Part shown: piece by piece, positions 6,960 through 46,811 of the stretch
Layout: each line of letters begins with the position of its first letter
How positions within the stretch are numbered: the stretch's first letter is position 1
Origin: Acidobacteriota bacterium
Lineage (GTDB): Bacteria; Acidobacteriota; Vicinamibacteria; Fen-336
NCBI GenBank assembly: GCA_003223555.1
Contig: QHVM01000082.1
Span: 163,762-227,761, forward strand
Direction of reading: 5' to 3'
Length of the DNA stretch: 64,000 nucleotides
Program-made: the position numbers and the translations under genes
Notes under the pieces: model-generated
The model's input: the letters and a program-made list of their open reading frames with translations, nothing else
Told to the model about the DNA's origin: nothing
Databases searched by the model: none

Positions 6960-7406
6960 ATGCTCAAGCGGGGCGAGACGGCGCCGGACTTCGCGGTGGG
7001 CGGCCGCACCCTCTACCAGATCCTCGACGAGCGCGCGGCGGTGGTCTTCTTCTTCCCCAAGGCGTTCACCGCCGGCTGAACGAAGGAGGCCGGCGGGTTC
7101 CGCCGGGAGTACGACAACCTCCAGGCGTCGGGCTGCGAGGTCATCGGCGTGTCCCGGGATTCCCAGGAGACGAACGACCGCTTCCGGGAGAGCCTGCGCC
7201 TGCCCTACTCGCTCGTCGGCGACCCGGAGGAGCGGATCGTCCGCGCCTACGACGTGCGCTGGCCGATCCTCGGCATGGTCCAGCGCGTCACCTACGTGGT
7301 CGGGCGCAACCGGAAGGTGCGTCTCGCCTTCCACAGCGAGTTGGACATGGACGCCCACTCGGCGCGGGCCTGCCGCGCCCTCGCCGAGCAGGCTCCCTCC
7401 GCCTGA
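6960..7406 (+). CDS. Peroxiredoxin (Bcp/PrxQ family) with in-frame TGA (7077-7079) at the peroxidatic Cys position. Candidate selenocysteine-containing peroxiredoxin, ~148 aa
   Basis: ATG at 6960 reads MLKRGETAPDFAVGGRTLYQILDERAAVVFFFPKAFTAG-TGA-TKEAGGF... The Bcp motif is (K)AFTPGCT, so the TGA replaces the catalytic Cys codon. The same frame continues as ORF 7149..7406 (…GVSRDSQETNDRFRESLRLPYSLVGDPEERIVRAYDV…), which is the Bcp C-terminal half. Confidence 0.72.
7090..7106 (+). promoter_or_regulatory. SECIS-like hairpin 10 nt downstream of the UGA: CCGGCGG-GUU-CCGCCGG (or a 6-bp stem with GGUUC loop)
   Basis: Perfect 7-bp inverted repeat read directly from the sequence. The apical loop contains GGUUC, like the GGUC loop of the E. 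coli fdhF SECIS. Confidence 0.55.
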
Positions 7407-7431: not shown

Positions 7432-8130
7432 ATGCCGGCCTCCCTTTCCGTCGTCATCCCCATGTACAACGAGGAGGCCTACGTGGAGCGGGCGGTGGCC
7501 GCGGCCCGCGCGGTGCTGGAAGGGATGGGGGCCGAGTGGGAGCTGGTGCTCGTCGATGACGCCTCCACCGACGCCACGCCGGCCCTCGCCGAGCGTCTGG
7601 CCCGGACCGACCCGCGCATCCGCGTGGTCCACAACCCGGTCAACCGTCGCCTGGGCGGCGCCTTGAGAGCCGGCTACGCCGCGGCCTCGAAGGAGCTGGT
7701 CTTCTACACGGACGCCGACCTGCCGGTGGACCTCGGGCAGCTCCCCCGGGCCGTGGGCCTGCTGGAGGGCCAGCAAGCGGACCTGCTCGCCGGCTATCGC
7801 TTCGACCGGACGTCCGAGGGCCTGCGCCGCGCGCTGTACACGATCGGCTACCACCTGCTCGTGCGGCTGCTCTTCGGCCTCCGCATCCGCGACGTGAACT
7901 TCGCCTTCAAGCTCTTCCGCCGCTCGCTGCTCCAGCGGATCGAGCTGAAGAGCGAGGGCAGCTTCATCGACGCCGAGCTGCTGCTGCGGGCGCGCAAGGC
8001 GGGGGCGGTGATGATCCAGCTCGGCCTCGACTACTTCCCGCGCACGCGGGGTTCGTCCAAGCTCTCCTCGCTGGACGTCATCGCCGCGATCCTGCGCGAG
8101 ATGGCAGGGCAGTGGCGTGAGCTGCGCTAG
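7432..8130 (+). CDS. Family 2 glycosyltransferase (polyprenol-phosphate sugar synthase / DPM1-like)
   Basis: SVVIPMYNEE...LVLVDDASTD...YTDADL motifs typical of GT2 (GT-A fold). Overlaps the start of the downstream GT-C gene by 14 nt. Confidence 0.8.
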   Translation: MPASLSVVIPMYNEEAYVERAVAAARAVLEGMGAEWELVLVDDASTDATPALAERLARTDPRIRVVHNPVNRRLGGALRAGYAAASKELVFYTDADLPVDLGQLPRAVGLLEGQQADLLAGYRFDRTSEGLRRALYTIGYHLLVRLLFGLRIRDVNFAFKLFRRSLLQRIELKSEGSFIDAELLLRARKAGAVMIQLGLDYFPRTRGSSKLSSLDVIAAILREMAGQWRELR

Positions 8131-9940
8131 GCGCGCCGCCCTCCTGGCCACCCTGCTCCTCGCCGCCGCCCTGCGTTTCGCCGGGCTGGGATGGGGCCTG
8201 CGCCAGCCGCCGCATCCCGACGAGGCCGTGTTCCTCGACAACGTGGCCCTCATGATCCGCAGCGGCGACCTGGACCATCGCTACTACCAGTACCCCGGCC
8301 TCTTCTTCTACATGCTGTATCCGCTCGTCCGCCTCCTGCCCCACGATCCGCCCGGACCGGCGGCCTACCTGGCCGCCCGCGCCCTGGTGGCCGCCTTCGG
8401 CGTGGCTTCGTGTGCGCTGGCCGCTCGGCTGGCCCGGGAGGTGGCCTCCCCCCGGGCGGGGCTGCTGGCGGCCCTGCTGCTGGCCGTCTCGCCGGTGGCG
8501 GTGGAGACGGCCCACATGGTCCGTCCCGACGTGGTGCTGCAGGCCCTCTGCCTGGCCGTGCTCATCGCGCTCGTCCGGGTCGGCGTCACTCTTCGCGGCG
8601 ACCTGCTCTCCGGTCTCGGCCTCGGCCTGGCGGGGGCGGTGAAGTTCTCGGCGGTGTTCCTCGTGCCCTCCTACCTCGCCCGGCGCCTCGTCGCGCCCGG
8701 ACCCCGGTGGCGGGGCCTGCTCGCCACGGCGGGCGTGGCCCTGGCGGCTTTCGTCCTGGCCAGCCCCTACGCGGTCCTGCACATGGCCGACTTCGTCGCC
8801 GGGGTGAGGGCCCAGGTCGGCTACCACTACCAGGAGCGGGGCCTGAGCCCGGTGTCCTATCCGCGCATGCTGCTCTTCTACCTGGAGGTCTGGCCCAAGG
8901 CCCTCGGATGGCCGGCGGTGCTGCTGGTCCTGGCCGCGCTGCCGTCCGCGTTCCGCGCCTGGCGGATATGGATCCCTTTCCTGTTTCTTCCCGCGACGGC
9001 CACCGCGGTGCTGGCCACCTCGGACATCCGCCACGACCGCTTCCTGCTGCCTGCGCTCGGCGTGGGGTTCGTCCTGGCCGGCCTGGGGGCGGAGCGGCTG
9101 GCCGGCCCGTGGCGCTTCGCCTTCCGCGCCGTCGCCGCCGTGGCGGCGGCGGTGCCGCTCGTCTCGTCGGTCGCCTACTTGCGCGGCGTGGTCGCCCCCA
9201 GCACCCGCGACCGTGTGCTCGACGCCATGGAGCCGGCCGCGCCTCGGGGAAGCCTCGTCATCTCCAGCGTCGAGCGGCTCGGCCTCGACCCCTCACGAGT
9301 CGAGGTCATGGAGATGGACCACCTGGGGCCGAGCCAGCGCGCCCAGCTCCGGGAGGCGGACTTCGTCGTGAGCACGGAGCGCGATGACCCGGCTTCCCTG
9401 GCCGGCCTCGAGAAGCTGCTGGAAACCGCGCCCGTGAACGCCTGGAACGGGCCGCGCCTCACGGTGTGGCGGGTTCCTCCCGCCCAGCGTCCCCTCCGGC
9501 GGCGCGTCCGCCTCGACCCGGCATGGCTGTCCGCCCCCGAGAACCCCGCCGAGATGCCGCTGGCCTGCGACGGCCGCGACGACACCTGGTGGCGGACCGA
9601 GGGCGTCCAGCGGCCGGGCGATTGGCTCCAGGTCAGATTGCCCGCGCCGGTCCTCCTCGACCGGATCGAGCTGGACGTCGACGGCAACGGCCGCTTCGCC
9701 GCCCGCGAGCTGCAGCTGCTCGTGTCCGCCGACGGGCGCCGCTTCGACGAGGCCCCGACGCGTCCCGGGCGGCCTCCGCTCGACGACCAGCGCGTGGAAG
9801 GCAAGAGCCACAGCCAGGTGCTGTTGCTCACGCCGCCCGCGCCGTCCCGCGCCTTTCGCCTCGTCCTCACCCGGCCTGGCGCCCATCGCTGGGGGGTGGC
9901 CGAGCTGCGGGTGGACGAGAGGGTGCCGCCCGCGCCGTAG
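8117..9940 (+). CDS. Membrane GT-C glycosyltransferase (GT39/PMT- or ArnT-like) with C-terminal discoidin/F5-8 type C-like domain
   Basis: Multi-TM N-terminal region with a DE-containing first loop (HPDEAVFLDNV). C-terminus reads ...CDGRDDTWWRTEGVQRPGDWLQVRLPAPVLLDRIELDV..., which is galactose-binding-like. Operon partner of the GT2 gene. Confidence 0.65.
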   Translation: MSCARRAALLATLLLAAALRFAGLGWGLRQPPHPDEAVFLDNVALMIRSGDLDHRYYQYPGLFFYMLYPLVRLLPHDPPGPAAYLAARALVAAFGVASCALAARLAREVASPRAGLLAALLLAVSPVAVETAHMVRPDVVLQALCLAVLIALVRVGVTLRGDLLSGLGLGLAGAVKFSAVFLVPSYLARRLVAPGPRWRGLLATAGVALAAFVLASPYAVLHMADFVAGVRAQVGYHYQERGLSPVSYPRMLLFYLEVWPKALGWPAVLLVLAALPSAFRAWRIWIPFLFLPATATAVLATSDIRHDRFLLPALGVGFVLAGLGAERLAGPWRFAFRAVAAVAAAVPLVSSVAYLRGVVAPSTRDRVLDAMEPAAPRGSLVISSVERLGLDPSRVEVMEMDHLGPSQRAQLREADFVVSTERDDPASLAGLEKLLETAPVNAWNGPRLTVWRVPPAQRPLRRRVRLDPAWLSAPENPAEMPLACDGRDDTWWRTEGVQRPGDWLQVRLPAPVLLDRIELDVDGNGRFAARELQLLVSADGRRFDEAPTRPGRPPLDDQRVEGKSHSQVLLLTPPAPSRAFRLVLTRPGAHRWGVAELRVDERVPPAP

Positions 9941-9982
9941 GGTGATCAGCGTCGCCCCGGCGGTTGTCGGTCCCGGCCGGGC

Positions 9983-11524
9983 ATGGTATCAGGGACCCTC
10001 ATGCTGACCGACCTCGCGATCACTCCCATCAGCGAGACGCTGCGCAACCTGTCGATCGACCGGCGCAGCGGCGACCTCCAGGTCCAGTCGGGGCGCACCG
10101 TCAAGACGGTGTTCTTCGACCATGGCCGCATCGTCTTCGCGGCCAGCAACCTCAAGAAGGACCGGCTGGGGGAGTCGCTGGTGGCCCTGGGGCGGATCAC
10201 CGACGAGGAGTTCAACCGCGCCTCGGCGCTGCTCCGGGAAGAGGGTCGAAAGCGCCGCTTCGGGGACGCCCTCGTCCACGCGGGGGTCCTGGACAAGAAC
10301 GAGGTCGGGCGCTCGGTGGCCCGGCAGGTGGACCGCATCGTGCGCTCGCTGTTCGAGCTGACGGAAGGGGTGACCGCCTTCGAGGACCGCCGCTCGGCCA
10401 TCCCGCTCGAGTACATGGTGAGCCTCTCCGTCCACCGCATGCTCTACGACGGCATCCGCCTGATGACGAGCCCCGAGCTGGTAGCGGCCGGCCTCGGCGA
10501 CCTCGACCGCCGCGTGAGCATGGTGGCCATCACCCCCTTCGCCTTCGACATGAAGGGCTGCCCGCCCGAAGAGCGGGAGATCCTCGAGCAGGCGCGGCGC
10601 AAGGTGACGCTGCGGCGGCTGGCCTGGGAGCCGGGCGGCCTGTCCTTCGCCCGCCTGCGCGCCTGTTACGCGCTCCTCGCCTCGGGCGTCCTGGAGGACG
10701 CCGAGCGCGCCGCCGATCCCGCCGAGCAGCCGGTCGTGCAGATGGAGACGGGTACTTTCCTGCTGTCCGCGCTCCGCCTCCAGCCCGACCCCTCCTCGCG
10801 GGACGCCATCCGGCAGGAGCTGGACGACGAGCTGGAGCGCTCGGCCCACCTCGACCGGGAGATGTGGCTGAAGGTCTCCCGCAACGCGCCCCGCGAGGAG
10901 CTCATCAAGGCGCTCGAGGACAAGATGGAGCGCTACCACACGCTGCTCGACGCGGCCGGGGACGACGAGGCGCTGAAGACCGACCTCGAGGTGATCCTGG
11001 GCCGAGCCTCCGCGATGCTGCGCCTGGCCCGCCAGGCGCCCGCCCCCCCCGCGCCGGCCGCTTCCGCGGCGCCGTCCGAGCCGGTCCCGGCCAATGAGGC
11101 GCGGACCGCCGACGGCGCTTTCGCCGGCGCGGCCCAGCTCGAGCACCTGCTGCTCGAGGGCGAGGTGCGGATGACCGTGTCCGACTACGCCAACGCCGTC
11201 CGCGTCTATGAGAAGCTCGTCGACCTCGCCCCGCGCGTGGCCGCCCACCGGGTGAGGCTGGCCATCGCCATGGCCAGCTACCCGCGCACCGCCAAGCAGG
11301 CGGAGCGTGAGTTCCTCGACGCGCTGCGCCTGGAGCCGAACAACGCCGACATCCATTACCAGTTCGGCCTCTACTACAAGGTGATGAAGCAGCGGGCGCG
11401 GGCCCTGGCCGAGATGCAGGCGGCCGTGCGCCTCAACCCGCGCCACCGCCTGGCCCGGGCGGAGCTGGAGGTGCTGTCGCCCAAGGACAGTGCGCTCCTC
11501 AACCTGAAGAAGCTGTTCAAGTAA
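9983..11524 (+). CDS. DUF4388 (PATAN-like) domain protein with C-terminal TPR repeats
   Basis: N-terminus LTDLAITPISETLRNLSIDRRSGDLQVQSGRTVKTVFFDHGRIVFAASN is the DUF4388 signature. C-terminal TPR-like helices (RVAAHRVRLAIAMASYPRTAKQAEREFLDALRLEPNNADIHYQFGLYYKV...). Confidence 0.7.
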   Translation: MVSGTLMLTDLAITPISETLRNLSIDRRSGDLQVQSGRTVKTVFFDHGRIVFAASNLKKDRLGESLVALGRITDEEFNRASALLREEGRKRRFGDALVHAGVLDKNEVGRSVARQVDRIVRSLFELTEGVTAFEDRRSAIPLEYMVSLSVHRMLYDGIRLMTSPELVAAGLGDLDRRVSMVAITPFAFDMKGCPPEEREILEQARRKVTLRRLAWEPGGLSFARLRACYALLASGVLEDAERAADPAEQPVVQMETGTFLLSALRLQPDPSSRDAIRQELDDELERSAHLDREMWLKVSRNAPREELIKALEDKMERYHTLLDAAGDDEALKTDLEVILGRASAMLRLARQAPAPPAPAASAAPSEPVPANEARTADGAFAGAAQLEHLLLEGEVRMTVSDYANAVRVYEKLVDLAPRVAAHRVRLAIAMASYPRTAKQAEREFLDALRLEPNNADIHYQFGLYYKVMKQRARALAEMQAAVRLNPRHRLARAELEVLSPKDSALLNLKKLFK

Positions 11525-11533
11525 TCTCGAATG

Positions 11534-11900
11534 CGGGCGAGCTACGCTCCGCATGGGTCTTCGTCATGCGCGCTCGCGGGAATGAATCCCGCTGCGCGCG
11601 CTGAAGGAAATGCTCCGCTGCGCTCGCCCGAACGCCGGGGATCGAAGCGGTCTCGCCCTGCGGGCGAGCTACGCTCCGCATGGGTCTTCGTCATGCGCGC
11701 TCGCGGGAATGAATCCCGCGGCGCGCACTGAAGGAAATGCTCCGCTGCGCTCGCCCGAACGCCGGGGATCGAAGCGGTTTCGCCCTGCGGGCGAGCTACG
11801 CTCCGCATGGGTCTTCGTCATGCGCGCTCGCGGGAATGAATCCCGCGGCGCGCACTGAAGGAAATGCTCCGCTGCGCTCGCCCGAACGCCAGGGAACGGG
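11534..11900. repeat. Tandem array of ~127-bp repeat units (2 full + 1 partial) belonging to the dispersed GCTCCGCT-core repeat family
   Basis: Unit starts (GCGGGCGAGCTACGCTCCGCATGG...) at 11534, 11660 and 11787. Each unit carries the hairpin CGCGGG-AATGAAT-CCCGCG and the right-end motif GAAATGCTCCGCTGCGCTCGCCCGAACGCC. The small ORFs 11531..11982 are repeat artefacts. Confidence 0.85.
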
Positions 11901-12780: not shown

Positions 12781-15700
12781 TCAACGCCGAGCCCGTTCGG
12801 CGATCCCGAAGCCGCTCCGGCCGGCGCCCTCGTACCGGGTGAAGCTCTCGTCGAGGACCAGCCGCCAGGGCCGGCCGGCGAGATGGCGGCCGGGGCGGCT
12901 CTCGGGCTGGACGGGCACGCTCAGCGTCGAGACGACCGTGCCCCTGACGTGCAGGGCGGGACCGGCGTCGGTCGTCACCTCGAGCTCGACCGAGCGGGGC
13001 CGGCCGGCGTCCTCGACCCAGGCGTGCTCCACGCGCGTGACCCGCTCGAGCGCTCCTCCGCGCCAGAGGAAGCCCCCCTCCACCATCCGGCCGCGCAGGC
13101 ACACCGCCAGCGCGTGCAGCGCGACGTCCTCGCCCAGGCGCACGGTGAAGAGGCCCCAGTGGTCGGCGGCGTCCCAGTCGCGGCGGCCGGCGGAGTGGTC
13201 GCGGCTCCCCGTTCCCACGAAGGTGAAGCGCCGCCCGTCCACCACGACCTCGCCCTCCGCCGTCCCCGACTGCTCGACGTGATGGGCGCCGAGCGGCTCC
13301 AGGAAGCGTCGGGTGTCCTCGTCGACGATGGCGCACAGGTCGACGGCCGGGGTCGTCGGCCGGAAGGCGAGGTCGATCGTCGCCTCCACGGTGCGCGGCG
13401 CGAGCAGCACCGGGAGGGGGCCGGGCGGGAAGGCGTCGGCCTCGTGCTCGGCGAGGCGCGTCGCCGCCCGCAGGCGCGGCGGCCTCCAGCCCCCGGCCAG
13501 GCCCGCCACGGCCAGCGCGCCCTCGTCCCGGCGGCCGTCGCCGCGCTCCAGCGCGAAGAGAAGCTTCCCGTCGGGCAGGAGAAGGGCGAGGACCCCCTCG
13601 CCCCGTCCGCCCGCCTTGAGCCCGAGAGAGCACACGATGCCGAGACGGCTCGTGGGGTCGAAGAGGTTGAAGTACACGCTCTCCCGCGCCAGGGGGTGAT
13701 CGTCCAGCGCGGGGAAGTCCTCTCCGGGCGCCGGAGGCCAGGCGAGGGCCCCGCGCGCGCTCGCGCCCGCTTCGGCCGGCCACGGCACGATCCGTCCCGC
13801 GCCGCCGTCGACCAGGATGCGCTGGCCGCCGCGGATGCGGCGCGTGGCATCGCGCACGTCCACGACGCACGGCACGCCCAGCTCCCGGGCCACGACCGCG
13901 CCGTGCGAAAGCAGGCCCCCCATCTCGGCCACCGCCCCGGCGGCGGAGGCGAGCAAGGGGCCGAGGGCCGCGTCGAGCACCGGCGCCACCAGCACCTCGC
14001 CCGGCTCGATCCGCGCCGTCTCGCCCTGGCGCACCACGCGCGCGGGCCCGACGCCGATGCCCGCGCTCACGCCGAGGCCGGCCAGGTCGCCTTCCGCCGG
14101 GGGCGCCGCCCCGGGGGCCGAGAAGTCGACCTCCCGCGGCGCGGCCAACGCGGCTTCGCGCTCCCAGCGGCGCCGGCGGCGCGCGACCGCCGGCCGGGAC
14201 ACGGCCGCCCCCCGCAGGGCCGCGCCCAGCTCGCCCGCGGTCAGGAAGAAGACGTCGTCCTCGGCCGCCAGCGCGCCGGTGGCGGCCAGCCGGCTCGCCG
14301 CCGCGCGCGCGATGTCCCGGCCGTGCTGGACGAGGACGACGGCGAGCGACTTCGTCGCTTCCCGCCGGGTCACCCATTCCCGCGCCGAGGCCAGGCCGCG
14401 CCGGAAGAGGGCCGCCCGCAGCGGCCCCAGCCGCGAGGCGATGGCCGCCTCGTCCGCGCGTCCGAGCTGCCCGGCGGCCCGGGCCCGGAACCCCGGCGGC
14501 CGCGCCGAGGACAGCCGCGCCTGCAAGGCGGCGAGCAGCGGCGAAGGATCGTCCTCCCAGGTGGGCGAGCGCAGCTCTCCTTCGGAGAGGCCGCGATGGC
14601 CCCACCGGCGCAGGAGATCGGCCAGGCGGGCGCGCAGCGCGGGCGGCGCGTCGCCCCGGCGCAGCGCCGCGGTGGCTCGAGCCGTCGGCTGGGCGAGCCA
14701 GGCCACCCATTCCAGATGCGCGGGCGCCTCCCCGGCGAGGACTTCCAGCGCCGCGACCGGGGCCGCGCTGTCGAGGCCGGCCAGGCCGGTCACGAGGCGG
14801 TTCACGCGAGGCGCGGCCTCGCCCGGCGCGAGGAGCGCGAGCAGCCGGGCCAGCAGCGCCAGCCGCACGCCGCACGCGCCCGAAGTGGCGACGTGGGCGG
14901 TGGCGACGAGGAGGCCGGTCCGCTCGAGGCCTTCGAGCATTGCGGCGAGCTCGTCCGCGCGGGCGGCCGCGACCGCTGCCCGTGACGGCCGGCGGGCGAG
15001 GGCCTGCTGCGCAGAGGCGATCTCTTCGGGCAGCCCTCGCGCCATCACCCGCAGCCGGGCCAGCACCCTGGCCAGCCGCGGCCAGGCGCTGACGGGCAGA
15101 CGGACCCGCTGCGCGGCGCCGCCGCCGAGGACCAGGCGCTCGACGTCGTCGCTCGCGAGGCCGGGCAGGCCGCGGCCGATCTCGAGGCAGAGGGAGAGGT
15201 TGAGGTAGACGCGCTCGCGGTGCAGCACCAGGAACGGTGGAGCATCGGCGGGAAGCAGCCCGGCTCGGCTCGCCACGTCGCGGAAGGCCTGCTCGAGGAG
15301 CGCCACCACCGTCGAGGCGGTCAGGGGGGTCACCGGATCGGGCAGCACCTCGCCGACGTTGGCGCGCGTGAGGCGCCGCAGGCGAGGGTCGCGGGGCGCC
15401 TCGCCCCCGGCGGTGATGGGCCGGGACTGCAGCAGCACGACGCCGCCCGAGCTGACCGCCCATTCCACGTCCTGGGGTCCGCCCAGCAGATCCTCGACCC
15501 GGCGCGCCAGGCGGAAGACGGTCGCCAGGTCGGGCGCGGGGAGGCTTCCCGTGGCCGGTCCCTCCCGTAGCGCTCCCGTCTCGCGGTCGAGGACGTATCG
15601 GTCGGGTCGCACCGAGCCCGATACCACCGCCTCGCCCCGGCCCGGGTGGGACTCGACGAGCATCGCGTCCGGCTCGGCGGGATGGCGGGTGAAGACGACC

Positions 15701-16119
15701 CCGGCCGCGCGCGGCTCTACGAAGCGCTGGACGAGGACGGCCGGGACGGTCAGGCTGCCGTCGACGGCCAGCCCCATGACGCGCGCGTAACCGGCCGCCG
15801 CTTCCGCCGAGCGACGCACCGCTTCGACGGCCGGGACGAGCACCTCGGCGCTCACGTCGAGCAGCGTGCGGTACTGGCCGGCGAAGCTGGCTTCGGCGGT
15901 GTCCTCGACGAGAGCCGACGAGCGTACGGCCACCCGCCCGCCGAGGCGGGCGGCGGCGGAGAGGAGGGCCGTCTCGCCGCCCTCGCCGATGACCTCGTCC
16001 GCGGCGACGACGAAACCGTCGGGGACGGGCAGGCCCGCTTGCCGGAGGCGGGCGAGGACGAACGCCTTGCCTCCGACGTGGAGGCGGTCAGCTTCGCCGA
16101 TCTCGTCCAGCCAGATCAC
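12781..16119 (-). CDS. Multidomain PEP-utilising enzyme (1112 aa): N-terminal PPDK/PEP-synthase-type ATP-grasp nucleotide-binding domain, central phosphohistidine swivel (mobile) domain, and ~300-aa C-terminal domain of unknown function (rifampin-phosphotransferase-like architecture plus extension)
   Basis: N-terminus IGEADRLHVGGKAFVLARLRQAGLPVPDGFVV (the PPDK_N hallmark). Swivel-domain signature GGLLSHGAVVARELGVPCVVDV near residue 760. No TIM-barrel PEP-utilizer C-domain recognised. Confidence 0.7.
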   Translation of the reverse strand: MIWLDEIGEADRLHVGGKAFVLARLRQAGLPVPDGFVVAADEVIGEGGETALLSAAARLGGRVAVRSSALVEDTAEASFAGQYRTLLDVSAEVLVPAVEAVRRSAEAAAGYARVMGLAVDGSLTVPAVLVQRFVEPRAAGVVFTRHPAEPDAMLVESHPGRGEAVVSGSVRPDRYVLDRETGALREGPATGSLPAPDLATVFRLARRVEDLLGGPQDVEWAVSSGGVVLLQSRPITAGGEAPRDPRLRRLTRANVGEVLPDPVTPLTASTVVALLEQAFRDVASRAGLLPADAPPFLVLHRERVYLNLSLCLEIGRGLPGLASDDVERLVLGGGAAQRVRLPVSAWPRLARVLARLRVMARGLPEEIASAQQALARRPSRAAVAAARADELAAMLEGLERTGLLVATAHVATSGACGVRLALLARLLALLAPGEAAPRVNRLVTGLAGLDSAAPVAALEVLAGEAPAHLEWVAWLAQPTARATAALRRGDAPPALRARLADLLRRWGHRGLSEGELRSPTWEDDPSPLLAALQARLSSARPPGFRARAAGQLGRADEAAIASRLGPLRAALFRRGLASAREWVTRREATKSLAVVLVQHGRDIARAAASRLAATGALAAEDDVFFLTAGELGAALRGAAVSRPAVARRRRRWEREAALAAPREVDFSAPGAAPPAEGDLAGLGVSAGIGVGPARVVRQGETARIEPGEVLVAPVLDAALGPLLASAAGAVAEMGGLLSHGAVVARELGVPCVVDVRDATRRIRGGQRILVDGGAGRIVPWPAEAGASARGALAWPPAPGEDFPALDDHPLARESVYFNLFDPTSRLGIVCSLGLKAGGRGEGVLALLLPDGKLLFALERGDGRRDEGALAVAGLAGGWRPPRLRAATRLAEHEADAFPPGPLPVLLAPRTVEATIDLAFRPTTPAVDLCAIVDEDTRRFLEPLGAHHVEQSGTAEGEVVVDGRRFTFVGTGSRDHSAGRRDWDAADHWGLFTVRLGEDVALHALAVCLRGRMVEGGFLWRGGALERVTRVEHAWVEDAGRPRSVELEVTTDAGPALHVRGTVVSTLSVPVQPESRPGRHLAGRPWRLVLDESFTRYEGAGRSGFGIAERARR

Positions 16120-16740: not shown

Positions 16741-17634
16741 TCAGCTCATCGGCCCCTGCGCGATGCGCTCCAGGATCGCGATCGGGGCCTTGTCGGGCAG
16801 GACCAGGGTGGCCCGCGCCACGAGGAACGTCTGCTCGAGGGCGTAGCGTCCCCTCAGCACGGCGTGGGAGACCATGTCGGTGAACACCATCCACGTCGAG
16901 CCGGCCGGGAACTCCACCTGGCGCTTCTCGACCGAGCGCTGGAACTCCGCGCTCTCCTTCAGGTGATGATGGAAGGAGAGCATGAAGCGGTCGTAGGGGG
17001 AGCGCACGGACACGTCCAGCCCCGCCCATCGCGCCAGCCTGCGCAGCCGGTCGGCGAGGCCGTCCCGCCGTGCCCGCTCAACCAGGGCCGGCGGCGCGAA
17101 GCGGGGCGCGATCTGCTCGAAGGTGCCCCCCGTGAGCCATACCCGCGCCTCGGCCGGGTTGACGTTGGTGAAGAGGCGCAGGATCCGGTCGCCCCGGGTC
17201 GGCCGGGTGGGGAAGGCGTCGACGTGCAGCAGGTCGTTGCGCGACCGGCGCGGCAGCTCCCGCCCCTCCTCCTCCTCGGGCCGGAAGCTCGCCAAGTCGA
17301 CCCTCCAGCTCCGCGCGTAACGCGGCAGGAGCCACGCCGCGAACTCCGTGGCCCGCCGCGAATAGAGCCGGAGGGCGCCGCGCAGCCGCTCGGCGTCGGC
17401 GCTCGTTCCGCGGGCGAACCCGGTCACCCGGTCCTGGGCCGGGCGGTAGGCGATGTTCTTGTGGTAGCCCGCCCCGCTCTGGCGCTGAGCGAGGAGGACC
17501 GCGCGTTCCGCCTCCGGCAGCTCGAACGGCGATCCAGGGAAGAAGAGGATCCGTCCCTCCTCGAGGGCCCGGCAGTAGTCGATCTCACGCGCCGGTGAAG
17601 GATCGGCCACCGTCTCCACGAGGGGAAGGACCAT
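16741..17634 (-). CDS. Kdo hydroxylase-like protein (KdoO family Fe(II)/2-oxoglutarate dioxygenase)
   Basis: Motifs RILFFPGSPF, LLHVDAFPTRPTRGDRILRLFTNVNP and WMVFTDMVSHAVL resemble the Kdo_hydroxy family. Assigned from memory of the family, not from a search. Confidence 0.5.
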   Translation of the reverse strand: MVLPLVETVADPSPAREIDYCRALEEGRILFFPGSPFELPEAERAVLLAQRQSGAGYHKNIAYRPAQDRVTGFARGTSADAERLRGALRLYSRRATEFAAWLLPRYARSWRVDLASFRPEEEEGRELPRRSRNDLLHVDAFPTRPTRGDRILRLFTNVNPAEARVWLTGGTFEQIAPRFAPPALVERARRDGLADRLRRLARWAGLDVSVRSPYDRFMLSFHHHLKESAEFQRSVEKRQVEFPAGSTWMVFTDMVSHAVLRGRYALEQTFLVARATLVLPDKAPIAILERIAQGPMS

Positions 17635-18771: not shown

Positions 18772-19467
18772 TCAGACTACCAGAGTGCTCCCGCCCGCCG
18801 CCTGCTGCACGTGCTTCAGCAGCAGCGACTCCGGGGCCGCGCCCACGAACTCGACGGTCTCGCCGACGACCGTCTTCGGCACCGACGAGACGCCGTACTT
18901 CTGGGCCAGCTCGGGATAGCCCGTCACCTCCACGCCGTCGGCGGTGATCTTGTCGCTCTCGATCGCGAAGCGGATGGCCAGGCGGACCGCCCGGGGACAG
19001 TAGGGTCAGGTCGGGGTCGAGAAGACCTGGAGGTGCACGGGGCGCGGCAGCTCCATGAGGGCGGCCCGTGTCTCGTCGGACAGGCCGCTGTCGCCCCGGG
19101 ACACGTCCAGGATCGCCTCGACGAGCGTCCCGAACTCGTAGCCGGACGGCAGGCCGTAGAGGCGGATGCCGTAGTCCTTGTCCTTCCCCATCACCGCGAT
19201 GGCGGGGATGCGCGCGATGCCGAGCGACTCGACCTTCTCCTTGTCGAGGACGAAATTGTACGACTCGACCGTCAGCCGGGGGTCGATGGCGGCCAGCTCC
19301 TCGACGAGGCGCCGCACCTGCTCGGACTCGGGATCGGCCAGGGCCTGGGAGAACACCGCCAGCCGCACGGGCTCGACGAGCCGGGCGAACTCCTCCTTGA
19401 GCTGGGAGGCGACGTCGTCGGTCATCAGCGGCATGCGCGAAACGTCCTCCGCCATCGAGTATAGCAA
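18772..19467 (-). CDS. Two-domain glutaredoxin-like / protein-disulfide-oxidoreductase (PDO)-like thioredoxin-fold protein with in-frame TGA (19006-19008) at the first Cys of the CPYC motif. Candidate selenoprotein (U-P-Y-C), ~231 aa
   Basis: ORF 19006..19467 ends …LQVFSTPT-TGA. The same frame continues PYCPRAVRLAIRFAIESDKITADGVEVTGYPELAQKYGVSSVPKTVVGETVEFVGAAPESLLLKHVQQAAGGSTLVV and stops at 18772. TPTCPYCP is the canonical Grx/Trx active site. The N-terminal Trx-like unit lacks CxxC, as in the glutaredoxin-like two-domain family. Confidence 0.72.
18978..18994 (-). promoter_or_regulatory. SECIS-like hairpin 11 nt downstream of the UGA: CCGGGCG-GUC-CGCCUGG (one G-U pair), or a 6-bp stem with GGUCC loop
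   Basis: Read from the sequence. Loop GGUCC compared with GGUUC in the peroxiredoxin element. The similar stems (CCGGCGG / CCGGGCG) and identical spacing support a shared function. Confidence 0.5.
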
Positions 19468-19474
19468 ACGGCCG

Positions 19475-20674
19475 TCAGCGCACCAGGACGAGCCCGGCGG
19501 CCAGCGTCAGCAGCGTCACCGGCACCCCGACCTTCAGGTACTCGGCGAAGCCGAGCGGCGAGAGCTTGCGCGCGCCCTCGGCCACGATGAGGTTGGCGAT
19601 GGAGCCGACGAGCGTGAGGTTGCCGGCCAGCGTGGAGGCCATGGCCAGCGTGATCCACGCCCGATGGGGCTGGGGCAGGTCGGGCACGAGATGGGTGAAG
19701 AGCATGACCGCGGGAACGTTCGAGACCAGGTTCGACAGCACCGCGACGGACGCGGCGAGGGAGACCACCCCGTGGGCCTCCCGGGCGTGGAGGGCATCGA
19801 ACAGGGCATCCGTGACGCCGGCCGCCCTGGCCGCTCCGACCACCACGAACAGGCCGGCGAAGAGCGTCAGCAGGTTCCAGTTGATCTCCAGGAACACCTT
19901 CTCCGGCTTCACGCGCCGGGTGAGCAGCAGGGCGGCCCCCGCGGTGAAGGCGACCATCGAGACGTTGGCCCCCGCGAAGAACCACGCGATCATGGCCACC
20001 GAGGCGGCGAGGCTCTTCAGGGTCAGGAACGGATGGAGCCTCGCCCGCGGCTCGGCGCGGGCGGCGAACGGCCGGGCCAGCTCCCGCCGGTACACGAGCG
20101 CGATCACCGCGAAGTCGACGAGGAGACCCACCACCGCCACGGGAGCCAGGGCGGCGAAGAAGGCGCGGTAGTGCATCCCGGAGGCGACCCCGATGAGCAT
20201 GTTCTGCGGGTTGCCGGTGAGGGTGGCGGTGGAGCCGATGTTGCTGGCGGTGGCGAGCGCGATCAGGTACGGCGTCGCCCGCACGCCGAGGCCGGCGGCC
20301 ACCTCCAGCACCAGCGGGGTGAGCGCCAGGCAGACGGTGTCGTTGACGAAGACGGCCGAGAGCACGCCGGCCACCGCCACCAGCCCCGCCAGCAGCCCCC
20401 GCGGGGAGGCGGCCCGCCGCGCCACCGCCGCGGCCACCCAGCGGAAGAACCCGGCCAGGCGGAGGTGCCCGACGATCACCATGGTCCCGAAGAGGAGCAC
20501 CAGCGTGCCGAGGTCCACCATGCCGTAGGCCTGCTCGGGGGTGACGACGTGGAAGGCGACCATGAACGCCGCCCCCACCACCGCCGCTCCCGTGCGGTCG
20601 AGGCGGATGCCGGGCGCGCGGCCCAGGGCCACCACCAGGTAGGTGGCGGTGAAGATGGTCGCGGCGGTCAGCAA
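19475..20674 (-). CDS. ArsB/NhaD-superfamily anion permease (arsenite/citrate-transporter-like)
   Basis: 399-aa polytopic membrane protein with TLTGNPQNMLIG and SNIGSTATL motifs typical of the ArsB/NhaD/SLC13 fold. Its stop is 8 nt upstream of the Sec-PDO start. Confidence 0.65.
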   Translation of the reverse strand: MLTAATIFTATYLVVALGRAPGIRLDRTGAAVVGAAFMVAFHVVTPEQAYGMVDLGTLVLLFGTMVIVGHLRLAGFFRWVAAAVARRAASPRGLLAGLVAVAGVLSAVFVNDTVCLALTPLVLEVAAGLGVRATPYLIALATASNIGSTATLTGNPQNMLIGVASGMHYRAFFAALAPVAVVGLLVDFAVIALVYRRELARPFAARAEPRARLHPFLTLKSLAASVAMIAWFFAGANVSMVAFTAGAALLLTRRVKPEKVFLEINWNLLTLFAGLFVVVGAARAAGVTDALFDALHAREAHGVVSLAASVAVLSNLVSNVPAVMLFTHLVPDLPQPHRAWITLAMASTLAGNLTLVGSIANLIVAEGARKLSPLGFAEYLKVGVPVTLLTLAAGLVLVR

Positions 20675-39194: not shown

Positions 39195-39467
39195 CTAGCC
39201 CGCGATCTCGACGGAGTCCACGATCCCCACGATGGCCGCGTCTACCCCGGCCAGGCCGCGGTCGAGCGCCATCATCGCCGCCTTGCCGTCGAGGACCAGG
39301 AGCACGCGGTCGCCGACCCCGGCGTCGACCGCGTCGATGGCCATCACCGCGGGGCCGCGGTCCTGGCCGTCGAGGTCGAGCGGCTGGGCGAGGAGGAGCT
39401 TGGCTCCTTCGAGCTTGCCGTTCTTCTGCGTGGAGACGACGCTGCCCACGACGCGCGCGATCAGCAT
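39195..39467 (-). CDS. BMC vertex protein (BMC-P, EutN/CcmL/PduN family), copy 1
   Basis: MLIARVVGSVVSTQKNGKLEGAKLLLAQPLD… is the EutN/CcmL signature. 90 aa. Confidence 0.88.
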   Translation of the reverse strand: MLIARVVGSVVSTQKNGKLEGAKLLLAQPLDLDGQDRGPAVMAIDAVDAGVGDRVLLVLDGKAAMMALDRGLAGVDAAIVGIVDSVEIAG

Positions 39468-39733
39468 CAGGACGTGCTCCAGTGGTCGACGATGCCCACG
39501 ATGGCGGCGTCGGTCGGGACCTCGGCGGGCAGGAAGGGCAGGGCGGCCTCGCGCCCGCGAACGTAGAAGACCTCCTCCGCCGCTCCCGCGCCCACCGAGT
39601 CGACCGCGACCAGTGGCCGGCCGCTCGGGGCGCGGTCCGGGCGCAAGGGCTGGATGACGAGCAGCTTCGTTCCGGCGAGGCCGGGGTCCTTGCGGGTGGC
39701 GACGACGGTGCCGATGACGCGGGCCAGGAACAC
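39467..39733 (-). CDS. BMC vertex protein (BMC-P, EutN/CcmL family), copy 2
   Basis: MFLARVIGTVVATRKDPGLAGTKLLVIQPL…; its stop overlaps the next start by 1 nt (TGATG). Confidence 0.85.
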   Translation of the reverse strand: MFLARVIGTVVATRKDPGLAGTKLLVIQPLRPDRAPSGRPLVAVDSVGAGAAEEVFYVRGREAALPFLPAEVPTDAAIVGIVDHWSTS

Positions 39734-39736
39734 GGC

Positions 39737-40006
39737 TCAGTCCTTCACTTCGACGGTGTCGACGACGCCCACGATGGCCGCGTCCACCGGACAGTCCTTG
39801 AGGCCGGAAGCCATGCGGGCCGAGGAGCCGCTCACGACGAGGACGCGGTCGCCGAGGCCGGCGTCCACCGTGTCCACCGTGACCACGTATCCGGCCTCGT
39901 CCTTGCCGCGGGGGTCGATCATCCGCACGAGGAGGAACTTCGAGCCCAGCAGGCGCTCGTCCTTCCGCGTGGCGACCACCGTGCCGACCACCCGCGCGAG
40001 GATCAT
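39737..40006 (-). CDS. BMC vertex protein (BMC-P, EutN/CcmL family), copy 3
   Basis: MILARVVGTVVATRKDERLLGSKFLLVRMID…. Confidence 0.85.
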   Translation of the reverse strand: MILARVVGTVVATRKDERLLGSKFLLVRMIDPRGKDEAGYVVTVDTVDAGLGDRVLVVSGSSARMASGLKDCPVDAAIVGVVDTVEVKD

Positions 40007-40033
40007 GAGGGAGAGCCGGGGCCGGGAGGGGGT

Positions 40034-40318
40034 CTACTTCGCCGCCTTGCCGATGGGCAGCACGTCCTCGAGGTTGGCGTGCGGCCGGGGGATCACGTGC
40101 ACGGAGACCAGCTCGCCCACCCGCCGGGCGGCCGCCGCGCCCGCGTCGGTGGCGGCCTTGACCGCCGCCACGTCGCCGCGCACCAGGGCGGTCACATAGC
40201 CGGACCCGATCTTCTCGTAGCCGACGAGGGTGACCTTCGCCGCCTTCACCATGGCGTCGGCGGCCTCGATCATCGCCACCAGCCCCCGGGTCTCGATCAT
40301 GCCCAGCGCTTCACCCAT
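40034..40318 (-). CDS. BMC hexamer shell protein (BMC-H, PduA/CcmK/EutM family, Pfam00936)
   Basis: [77 protein letters not shown] is the near-consensus BMC-H sequence. Confidence 0.92.
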
Positions 40319-40375
40319 GCTGCCTCCCCTGAACGGCCAATGCGGTCAGACTCTGGACCGGCGCGTGGCCGGAAG

Positions 40376-45294: not shown

Positions 45295-45383
45295 TTCGGG
45301 AAGGCTATTAGAGCCGAGCCGCCGGGGTCAAGCACGCGGCGGTTGTCAGCGTGCGGGAGGACGTGGCAGGCTAGGCGCCCGGC

Positions 45384-45800
45384 ATGCAGACCCCCGAGCA
45401 GCTCCTGAGGATCATGGCCGAGCAGGTGCCGTTCAACCGCCTGCTGGGCATGCACGGCGAATCGGTGGCGGCCGGCTCGTGCGTTCTGGTGCTGCCGGTG
45501 CGGCCCGATTTCGTGGGCGACTTCCGGCGTCCAGCCTTGCACGGCGGCGTGCTCTCCTCGCTCATCGACACCGCGGGCGGGGTCGCGGCCTGGTCCGCCC
45601 TCGGCCCGGGCGAGTCCGTCTCCACGGTGGACCTGCGGGTGGACTTCCTGGAGCCGGCGGGGCTGGGCGGTCCGCTGCGGGCCGACGCCCAGCTCGTGCG
45701 CAAGGGCAACCGCGTCTGCCACGTGCGGATCGCGGTCACCCAGGACGGCCTGCTCGTCGCCGAGGGCCGGGGCGTCTACAACATCCACAAGCGGAGCTGA
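45384..45800 (+). CDS. Hotdog-fold thioesterase (PaaI/YbgC-like, 'uncharacterized domain 1' family)
   Basis: …MHGESVAAGSCVLVLPVRPDFVGDFRRPALHGGVLSSLIDTAGGVAAW… is the PaaI-type pattern. Confidence 0.7.
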   Translation: MQTPEQLLRIMAEQVPFNRLLGMHGESVAAGSCVLVLPVRPDFVGDFRRPALHGGVLSSLIDTAGGVAAWSALGPGESVSTVDLRVDFLEPAGLGGPLRADAQLVRKGNRVCHVRIAVTQDGLLVAEGRGVYNIHKRS

Positions 45801-45803
45801 CGG

Positions 45804-46811
45804 GTGCGCGTCCTCGTCGTGGGCGGGACGCGCTTCGTCGGCTACGAGCTCGTCTGGCGCCTGCTCGCCGGCGGGCACCGGCTGACCCTCTTCAACCGCG
45901 GCACCCGTCCCGACCCGTTCGGGGAGCGGGTGGAGCGGCTGCGGGGGGACCGTACCGCGGGCGACCTGGCTCGCCTGGTGGCCGGGCGCCGTTTCGACGC
46001 GGCGGTCGACTTCGCTGTCTTCAACGGTGATGAAGCCGCGGAAGCGGTCGGGGTGTTGCGAGGTCACGTCGGCCACTACGTGATGATCTCCTCCGGCCAG
46101 GTGTACCTGGTGCGCGAGCCGCGGCCCACGCCGGCCCGGGAGGACGACTACGACGGTCCCCTCATGGCGGCTCCCGCTCTTGCCAGGGAGAAGGAAGAGT
46201 GGGACTACGGCATGGGCAAGCGCGCGGCGGAGGACGTCCTGGCCCGCGCATGGCAGGCGGAGCGGTTCCCGTCGACCCGCCTGCGCCTGCCGATGGTCAA
46301 CGGCGAGCGCGACCACCACCGCCGCCTGGAGGGTTACCTCTGGCGCCTGCTCGACGGCGGCCCGGTCGTCCTGCCCGACGGCGGGATGCGCCCGATGAGG
46401 CACGTCTACTCCGGCGCCGTGGCGCGGGCCACGGCGGCGCTGCTCGGCCGGAGCGACACGTTTGGCCAGGCCTACAACCTCGCCCAGGACGAGACGCCCA
46501 CGCTGCGGGAGGCGCTGACGGTGGTCGCCGAACGGCTCGGCGCCTCGCCGCGCCTCGTCACCGTGCCATCGTCGCAGATCGAGACCGCCGGCCTGGACGT
46601 CGTGGCCGTCTCGCCCTTCAGCGGCCGGTGGATGTCCTTCCTCGACCCGTCGCGAGCCAAGACCGAGCTGGGCTTCCGCCACGAGCCGCTGGCCGAATAC
46701 CTCGGCCGGATCGTGGCCGCCTTCCTGGCCCAGCCGCCGGCGTCGCCGCCCGAGAGCCTCTCCCATCGGGCCGACGAGATCGCCCTCGCCGGGTCCGCCG
46801 GGAGACACTAG
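45804..46811 (+). CDS. NAD-dependent epimerase/dehydratase family protein (extended SDR)
   Basis: MRVLVVGGTRFVGYELVWRLLAGGHRLTLFNRG is an N-terminal Rossmann GxxGxxG. Confidence 0.75.
   Translation: MRVLVVGGTRFVGYELVWRLLAGGHRLTLFNRGTRPDPFGERVERLRGDRTAGDLARLVAGRRFDAAVDFAVFNGDEAAEAVGVLRGHVGHYVMISSGQVYLVREPRPTPAREDDYDGPLMAAPALAREKEEWDYGMGKRAAEDVLARAWQAERFPSTRLRLPMVNGERDHHRRLEGYLWRLLDGGPVVLPDGGMRPMRHVYSGAVARATAALLGRSDTFGQAYNLAQDETPTLREALTVVAERLGASPRLVTVPSSQIETAGLDVVAVSPFSGRWMSFLDPSRAKTELGFRHEPLAEYLGRIVAAFLAQPPASPPESLSHRADEIALAGSAGRH

Follow-up and report, generated by a model that had tools for sequence, protein, structure and literature searches.

A probable selenocysteine-containing protein disulfide oxidoreductase encoded across an in-frame UGA in a Vicinamibacteria-like Acidobacteriota

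The selenoprotein family of protein disulfide oxidoreductases (PDOs) was initially predicted from Carboxydothermus hydrogenoformans and Symbiobacterium thermophilum, and was reportedly described for the first time by Kryukov and Gladyshev in 2004. It is listed among the predicted selenoproteins with a UxxC motif, in which U stands for selenocysteine (Sec) (PMC9312934; PMC13188914). In 2006, two bacterial Sec-containing members were counted, those of C. hydrogenoformans and S. thermophilum, and selenoproteins had by then been recognized in Acidobacteria as well (PMC1794560). We describe here a gene of this family, located on the minus strand of a 64-kb stretch of DNA (hereafter the window, i.e., the whole stretch that was analyzed) from a soil, Vicinamibacteria-like Acidobacteriota, whose reading frame is interrupted by a TGA codon at 19008-19006. 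Our results make it very likely that the gene encodes a Sec-containing PDO, that its UGA is recoded by way of a hairpin lying just downstream, and that the protein is a probable thioredoxin reductase (TrxR)-dependent reductase feeding peroxiredoxins or other disulfides.

The resemblance to the catalogued family is close: the protein passes the family model TIGR02187, it is a single chain of two thioredoxin folds, Sec would occupy the first position of UxxC, and a hairpin of the bacterial Sec insertion sequence (bSECIS) type stands right after the UGA. The catalogued hosts are thermophilic Firmicutes and Actinobacteria (and Asgard archaea), whereas the present one is a soil Acidobacteriota, in whose lineage Sec and Cys orthologues alternate within one synteny. 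Like the rest of the family, this PDO selenoprotein is predicted from sequence. The family being already catalogued, with an NCBIfam model whose very name contains "seleno", the gene is an expected member and opens no new mechanism. The new elements are modest: all 14 of the Vicinamibacteria/Acidobacteriota genomes that were sampled have the Sec form, Sec and Cys forms are interleaved, and public gene calls split the gene.

Two other groups of proteins serve as points of comparison for structure and function. Archaeal PDOs receive electrons from thioredoxin reductase and are able to pass them to Bcp peroxiredoxins, and the N-terminal domain of AhpF shuttles electrons from the reductase module to AhpC.

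Reading frame, protein family and fold

Read on the minus strand, the frame extending from 19467 to 18772 translates as ...LQVFSTPT*PYCPRAVRLAIRFAIESDK...GGSTLVV*, with one internal and one terminal stop. The parts of the frame before and after the TGA both look coding, since third-position GC is 0.95-0.96 in each of them, the G+C content of the window being about 73%. The original prediction had placed the start of the gene at 19467 (a TTG), which is probably 11 codons too far upstream: ATG 19434 (MPLMTDD...) is the likely start, because it is used by every homologue and in every public gene call and a GGAGGA precedes it. From this ATG, the gene (19434-18772) has 220 codons, including that of Sec143, plus the TGA stop at 18774-18772. 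Its features are the following.

18772-19434, minus strand: complete gene of a predicted Sec-containing PDO, homologous to the AhpF N-terminal domain (translation; start from homologues and public gene calls)
19445-19450, minus strand: Shine-Dalgarno-like GGAGGA, 10 nt 5' of ATG 19434 (read from the sequence)
19096-19434, minus strand: N-terminal thioredoxin-like unit without redox motif, about residues 1-113 (secondary structure of the AlphaFold2 (AF2) model, alignment with 1a8l)
18775-19053, minus strand: C-terminal thioredoxin/glutaredoxin-like unit with UPYC, about residues 128-220 (Pfam, AF2 model)
19006-19008, minus strand: in-frame UGA, predicted Sec, residue 143, at the N-terminal nucleophilic position of U-P-Y-C (alignment with Cys forms)
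18997-18999, minus strand: TGT for Cys146, the resolving Cys of U-P-Y-C (invariant C146 column in alignment A3)
18877-18879, minus strand: CCG for Pro186 in V-P-K-T (V185, P186 and T188 invariant in alignment A3)

By analogy, Pro186 probably corresponds to the cis-proline position conserved in thioredoxin folds.

With Sec written as Cys in the query, the protein scores 243.1 bits with TIGR02187 ("PDO_seleno_TRX, protein disulfide oxidoreductase"; curated cutoff, 185 bits), residues 13-219 being matched to positions 2-209 of the 209 of the profile. Pfam matches are confined to the C-terminal third (Thioredoxin_3, 4e-17, residues 141-210; Glutaredoxin, 6e-7). In the PDB, the best match is 1a8l, the PDO of P. 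furiosus, over the full length; the PDOs of P. horikoshii, A. aeolicus and A. pernix are matched as well, and the N-terminal domains of AhpF rank after. Full-length homology to the PDOs 1A8L, 1J08 (P. horikoshii), 2AYT/2YWM (A. aeolicus) and 2HLS (A. pernix) ranges from E 3e-43, for 1a8l, to 8e-30. The AF2 model, built from an alignment of 38 sequences, has a mean predicted local distance difference test (pLDDT) score of 93.8. When this model is compared by Foldseek, template modelling (TM) scores are 0.89-0.92 to 1a8l, 2ywm and 2ayt and 0.85-0.92 over the PDOs as a whole, against 0.76-0.85 to the AhpF N-terminal domains of S. typhimurium (1ZYN/1HYU), E. coli (4O5Q) and E. faecalis (5H29, which gives the 0.85), a value of 0.78 being also among them.

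The protein shares with archaeal and Aquifex PDOs a CPYC-type site in the C-terminal unit, but this site starts with Sec instead of Cys and, where the N-terminal unit of the P. furiosus PDO (1a8l) has CQYC, that of the window protein has A-D-P-E. The two CXXC motifs of an archaeal-type PDO are therefore not found, and the protein has a single redox centre, in the second thioredoxin fold. Such a layout, with two contiguous thioredoxin folds and one CxxC in the second, is that of the AhpF N-terminal domain. Unlike AhpF, however, the window protein stands alone, without a fused FAD/NADH reductase module; its identity to AhpF is 19-25%, and its score with the AhpF model TIGR03140 is 62.8 bits for a cutoff of 502.9, with only profile positions 2-199 matched, so that it is not a full-length AhpF. 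The Sec-containing thioredoxins and glutaredoxins (UxxC; e.g., in Treponema denticola and Clostridium oremlandii) have the same chemistry, with Sec at the nucleophilic position, but they consist of one domain and belong to different families (PF00085, PF00462), and the Glutaredoxin match of the window PDO is weak (30 bits). These comparisons agree with the two-unit PDO architecture, with an N-terminal unit devoid of CxxC, that had been proposed for this gene.

Sec/Cys exchange and translation past the UGA

In a search covering 5.8 billion proteins, the homologues form two populations. The first consists of full-length proteins of about 220 aa, 54-86% identical and carrying STPT-C-[PG]-[YFH]-C; the second, which is the closest (83-99% identical), consists of 142-aa products ending exactly at STPT. 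The original prediction held that the TGA occupies the nucleophilic Cys position of T-P-T-C-P-Y-C-P, and had suggested a U/C alignment as a check. This is borne out: STPT-[TGA]-PYCP pairs with STPT-C-PYCP, so that TGA 19008-19006 falls in the column of the first Cys, which is invariant in about 90 full-length homologues.

The codon at the position of Sec143 was counted in loci from 80 species-representative genomes. It is TGA in 28 loci and TGC or TGT in the other 52. The TGA loci belong to 14 Vicinamibacteria/Acidobacteriota (all 14 sampled), 8 bacteria of the Chloroflexota lineage (6 Anaerolineae, 1 Chloroflexota, 1 Caldilineae), 2 Terriglobia, 1 Ignavibacterium and 3 unclassified bacteria; all archaeal loci are among the 52 that carry Cys. 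On a rough neighbour-joining tree, which is unsupported and built on a biased sampling, Sec and Cys orthologues are interleaved, with at least 9 switches by parsimony (Fitch), and one Cys form nests within the otherwise all-Sec clade of the window.

Soil-metagenome contigs resembling the window show 0-2 differences in the gene region, and the closest named relatives are Vicinamibacteria metagenome-assembled genomes. On four near-identical contigs (L081-L084), public gene calls split the gene into a 142-aa product without any Pfam match and a fragment of 53 aa that begins at a GTG and matches Thioredoxin_3 weakly. Public gene calls systematically mis-annotate the Sec form in this way.

Taken at face value, these automated calls would mean that the UGA is a true stop and the gene a decayed or truncated remnant, giving only a 142-residue, redox-inactive N-terminal unit. 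TGA is indeed the commonest ordinary stop in the window, where it ends 20 of the 36 other well-supported open reading frames (ORFs) as well as the PDO gene itself, and neither the window nor the flanking sequence retrieved for related loci shows any Sec machinery. However, the C-terminal unit continues in frame in 80/80 loci; the 77 codons that follow the TGA stay in frame, and the identity of the unit across 14 Vicinamibacteria species is 69-85%. When the window is compared with 13 Vicinamibacteria relatives, the ratio of non-synonymous to synonymous substitution rates (dN/dS) is 0.12-0.53 over 47 ungapped codons after the TGA, i.e., as low as or lower than in the 30 codons before it. Purifying selection is thus found downstream of the UGA, as is generally expected of a bacterial selenoprotein. 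In addition, the TGA falls exactly at the catalytic Cys in 28 genomes of several phyla, and the frameshifts and further stops that a pseudogene would gather are not seen in these loci. We consequently regard a true stop as very improbable. A truncated remnant and a pseudogene in relatives were also two of the scenarios that had been named in advance as fatal to a Sec reading of this gene, and both are rejected by the maintained frame and the purifying selection.

Even less credible, in our view, is the production of two polypeptides, the N-terminal unit stopping at the UGA while translation re-initiates downstream, e.g., at GTG 18933, to give a small thioredoxin-like protein from the C-terminal part. 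The 53-aa ORF called from this GTG in public assemblies, with its Thioredoxin_3 match, is what speaks for it. However, GTG 18933 is the sole downstream start, no start codon being present between the TGA and the conserved P-Y-C, and a fragment beginning there would be deprived of the PYC active site and of the first helix. The 24 codons from TGA to GTG correspond to the most conserved part of the protein, and every one of the 52 Cys forms, like every solved structure, is a single chain. As for a global reassignment of UGA, it is rejected, since TGA ends so many other ORFs and the PDO gene itself. Altogether, the pairing with Cys, the distribution among genomes, the selection, the true TGA stops and the absence of an internal start lead us to exclude three alternatives: decay to a pseudogene, a gene split in two and a genetic code altered throughout the genome.

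The hairpin and the decoding of Sec

Recoding of the UGA as Sec would call for a signal, and a hairpin starting 11 nt past the UGA is a candidate for it.

18978-18994, minus strand: bSECIS-type hairpin CCGGGCG-GUC-CGCCUGG, within codons P147-R-A-V-R-L-A153 (folding, bSECIS model)

A model of the bacterial SECIS with four criteria has been published (PMC13188914, Fig. 2A), and the hairpin at 18994-18978 agrees with it in all four, as follows.

Apical loop: 3-9 nt in the model; 3 nt (GUC) in the hairpin
Upper stem: 4-16 bp in the model; 7 bp in the hairpin
G in the first two loop positions: required by the model; G then U in the hairpin
Distance from UGA to loop: 16-37 nt in the model; 18 nt in the hairpin
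Minimum free energy: -7.5 kcal/mol or lower in the model; -11.2 kcal/mol in the hairpin

The hairpin announced by the original prediction, which likened it to an element in a peroxiredoxin gene of the window, is thus found, with canonical spacing, and is nearly identical to that of the peroxiredoxin gene. In the E. coli fdhF element, a GGUC loop motif stands at nearly the same distance, and bacterial SECIS hairpins recruit SelB with Sec-tRNA(Sec).

Codon usage in the stem differs from that of the rest of the gene. In 14/14 Vicinamibacteria Sec loci, stem codons +4 (CCC), +5 (CGG), +8 (CGC) and +9 (CUG) show zero synonymous variation, whereas the other fully conserved, 4- or 6-fold degenerate codons of the compared stretch all vary (15/15, with 2-4 synonymous codons each; Fisher's test on these counts, phylogeny being ignored, about 3e-4). 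Arg +5 is always CGG, although the gene otherwise encodes Arg mostly by CGC. Among the Cys orthologues of the same synteny (n=4), three have changed stem codons and have lost the stem, and one retains the stem without the G-U loop. When all loci are considered, the hairpins of Sec forms are longer (Mann-Whitney, p 8e-6) and more stable (p 1e-3) than those of Cys forms.

Several observations nevertheless weigh against a Sec PDO recoded through this hairpin. A loose SECIS rule holds after 19 of the 956 TGA triplets (about 2%) of this 73% GC window, and the hairpin overlaps a conserved peptide, PRAVRLA. Shuffle z-scores are weak (-0.02 over 60 nt, -1.3 over 21 nt), GC-rich sequence folding anyway. 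Column covariation over the 28 Sec loci is not significant, its score being reached in 19/500 shuffles and by slid registers alike, in a region that is coding and where the register of the hairpin shifts by at least 1 nt between phyla; likewise, RNAalifold does not recover the hairpin across these 28 loci. At gathering thresholds, no Rfam model, including those of bacterial SECIS and tRNA-Sec, matches the window. Two Cys forms keep a similar stem: L014 (6442-6486) retains CCAGGCG-GUC-CGCCUGG and L086 (4001-4663) retains CCGGGCG-GCG-CGCCUGG, which could result from a recent Sec-to-Cys conversion or from codon coincidence within PxAVRLA. Finally, neither the 64-kb window nor the flanking sequence retrieved for related loci contains selA, selB, selD or tRNA-Sec, and tblastn with approximate E. 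coli SelA, SelB and SelD query sequences gives no match in the window or in the 80 loci. Alone, the hairpin is weak evidence; it is significant only when combined with the Cys/TGA alignment and with conservation.

That no such gene turns up in the window and these flanks also bears on whether the UGA might be read through as something other than Sec, either by near-cognate insertion of Trp, Cys or Arg or by a SelB-independent, local recoding, for which the hairpin could be a generic read-through stimulator. We nevertheless give this reading very little chance. The site is that of the nucleophilic Cys of a CxxC redox centre, where only Cys or Sec would be functional, and the repeated alternation of TGA with TGC/TGT on the rough tree is the signature of Sec/Cys exchange. 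The hairpin fits a SelB-type bSECIS model down to the G-U apical loop, the family is recognized as a selenoprotein family, and the window contains a second gene of Sec type.

This second gene, at 6960-7406 on the plus strand, encodes a peroxiredoxin of the BCP/PrxQ type, with TGA 7077-7079 at the peroxidatic Cys (FFFPKAFTAG-U-TKEA); a Pfam AhpC-TSA match spans this TGA. A hairpin, CCGGCGG-GUU-CCGCCGG, lies 10 nt past the UGA, with an energy of -14.1 kcal/mol and a z-score of -2.4. Judging from its sequence, the TGA-interrupted peroxiredoxin would be a second, independent sign that the organism decodes Sec, and on both genes we strongly infer Sec decoding in the organism of the window. This would affect the annotation of all TGA-interrupted redox genes in the genome.

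Other candidates related to Sec were rejected. In L024 (2364-2458), ARAGORN calls a 95-nt "tRNA-???" 5' of genes for a Sec-form PDO and a BCP, but the absence of any Rfam match to tRNA or tRNA-Sec makes a false positive probable. Pairs of ORFs in one frame and rich in third-position GC, at 39467-40345, 45375-46811 and 8015-11524, are ordinary adjacent genes, in which a TAG or TGA is followed by a new start, and not further Sec genes.

Probable function and gene neighbourhood

The following mechanism best accounts for our results. The PDO is made of two fused thioredoxin folds, the N-terminal unit being redox-inactive and the C-terminal unit bearing the active site U143-P-Y-C146. UGA 19008-19006 would be recoded to Sec, the in-coding bSECIS hairpin 18994-18978 acting as the signal. 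The selenolate of Sec143, at the nucleophilic position, would attack substrate disulfides and Cys146 would resolve the ensuing selenenylsulfide. The PDO would most likely be reduced by a flavoenzyme of the thioredoxin reductase type and would pass electrons on to peroxiredoxins or other disulfide substrates, a candidate substrate being the Sec-containing, BCP-type peroxiredoxin encoded 12 kb away. As the protein has no hydrophobic N-terminus, it is presumably cytoplasmic. The pairing of Sec with Cys, the family and fold, the conserved and selected sequence downstream of the UGA and the SECIS features, with their constraint at the RNA level, are shown here; the actual insertion of Sec, the electron donor and the substrates are what we infer in this scheme.

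The PDO most likely acts as a disulfide reductase that depends on TrxR and supplies peroxiredoxins and further disulfide substrates, because of the analogy with archaeal PDOs and AhpF and of gene neighbourhoods in other lineages. Of the 80 loci, 14 have a trxB-like gene immediately beside that of the PDO and in the same orientation; all 14 are Cys forms, and the pair re-creates a "split AhpF".

Loci with an adjacent trxB-like gene: L020, L021, L036-L038, L042, L045, L046, L051, L068, L070, L071, L073, L074

The proposed donor is thus deduced from Cys forms of other phyla only, since trxB adjoins the PDO gene in 0 of the 28 Sec-form loci, and this too counts against the scheme; in the window, neither ahpC nor trxB is next to the PDO gene. 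A BCP-type peroxiredoxin gene is adjacent in 2 of the 80 loci, one of which is the Sec-form locus L024.

A more ambitious proposal, which we advance only tentatively and regard as rather unlikely, is that PDO has switched repeatedly between Sec and Cys within one Vicinamibacteria synteny, the stem codons being frozen in Sec forms and drifting in Cys forms, and that the Sec-containing PDO and the Sec-containing BCP may together constitute an all-selenium, peroxide-reducing relay in a soil bacterium that lives aerobically. If true, the Vicinamibacteria clade would offer a natural experiment showing under what conditions thiol peroxidase systems profit from selenium, and the selenoproteomes of soil Acidobacteriota would be under-annotated, as public calls split the PDO gene. 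With Sec and Cys orthologues densely sampled in one synteny, the loci are in any case a clean set for the study of Sec/Cys exchange and of the birth and decay of SECIS elements.

The immediate upstream neighbour of the PDO gene encodes a permease.

19475-20674, minus strand: upstream neighbour, permease of the CitMHS / ArsB-NhaD superfamily (Pfam and NCBIfam scores, synteny)

The gene order GT39-like, permease, PDO, with 10 nt between the first two, is as originally described. The gap between permease and PDO, given as 8 nt, is different: the permease stop codon is at 19477-19475, which leaves 7 nt to TTG 19467 and 40 nt to the likelier ATG 19434. The permease had been assigned to the ArsB/NhaD family. 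Membership of the superfamily stands, but identity as ArsB does not, the scores with ArsB models being far below their cutoffs (NF011980, 86.7 bits for 457; TIGR00935, 64.8 for 415; NF033877, 49.7 for 760), and the best Pfam match is CitMHS (218 bits).

A conserved Vicinamibacteria block comprises genes for an FHA-trypsin-like protease, a GT39/PMT-like glycosyltransferase, the PDO, an HGSNAT-like membrane acyltransferase and a PPDK-like enzyme, and it houses both Sec and Cys orthologues of the PDO. Of 13 syntenic loci, 4 have the permease gene inserted after GT39 and before PDO, namely the window, L013 and contigs P0004 and P0010; in the other 9 (L001-L006, L009 and contigs P0003 and P0021), PDO comes directly after GT39. 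The permease gene is absent from all more distant loci, save for non-adjacent copies.

This distribution bears on the idea, put forward with the original prediction, that the PDO is a dedicated redox partner of the transporter or of a reductase, e.g., for the handling of arsenate or oxyanions, and that its gene shares a transcript with that of the permease. The two genes share a strand and short gaps with their neighbours, the same adjacency recurs in the three other loci named above, and no terminator-like site separates permease from PDO, the promoter/terminator scan of 17.5-24 kb being otherwise uninformative. However, all ArsB models fail by a wide margin and the annotated genes of the 12.8-23.8 kb interval include no arsC or arsR. 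Co-transcription alone would moreover not imply functional coupling. Since the permease adjoins the PDO gene in only 4 of the 13 syntenic loci, a dedicated partnership with the transporter or in arsenate handling seems unlikely, although we grant it somewhat more credit than the rival readings of the UGA.

Further genes of the region are worth mentioning. At 12781-16119, on the minus strand, lies the gene of an 1112-aa PPDK_N/PEP-utilizer protein with C-terminal DUF7064/DUF7065; a PPDK-like gene belongs to the PDO-syntenic block of several Vicinamibacteria. A Kdo hydroxylase homologue is encoded near it, at 16741-17634 on the minus strand. Elsewhere in the window, an intergenic tandem repeat at 11532-11895 has a 127-nt unit in 2.9 copies with 98% identity. 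Finally, three consecutive bacterial microcompartment (BMC) shell genes are present at 39467-40345 on the minus strand, one encoding a BMC domain (PF00936, 108 bits) and two encoding EutN/CcmL pentamer proteins (PF03319, 102 and 95 bits), which, by their sequences, point to a putative microcompartment locus in a Vicinamibacteria-like genome.

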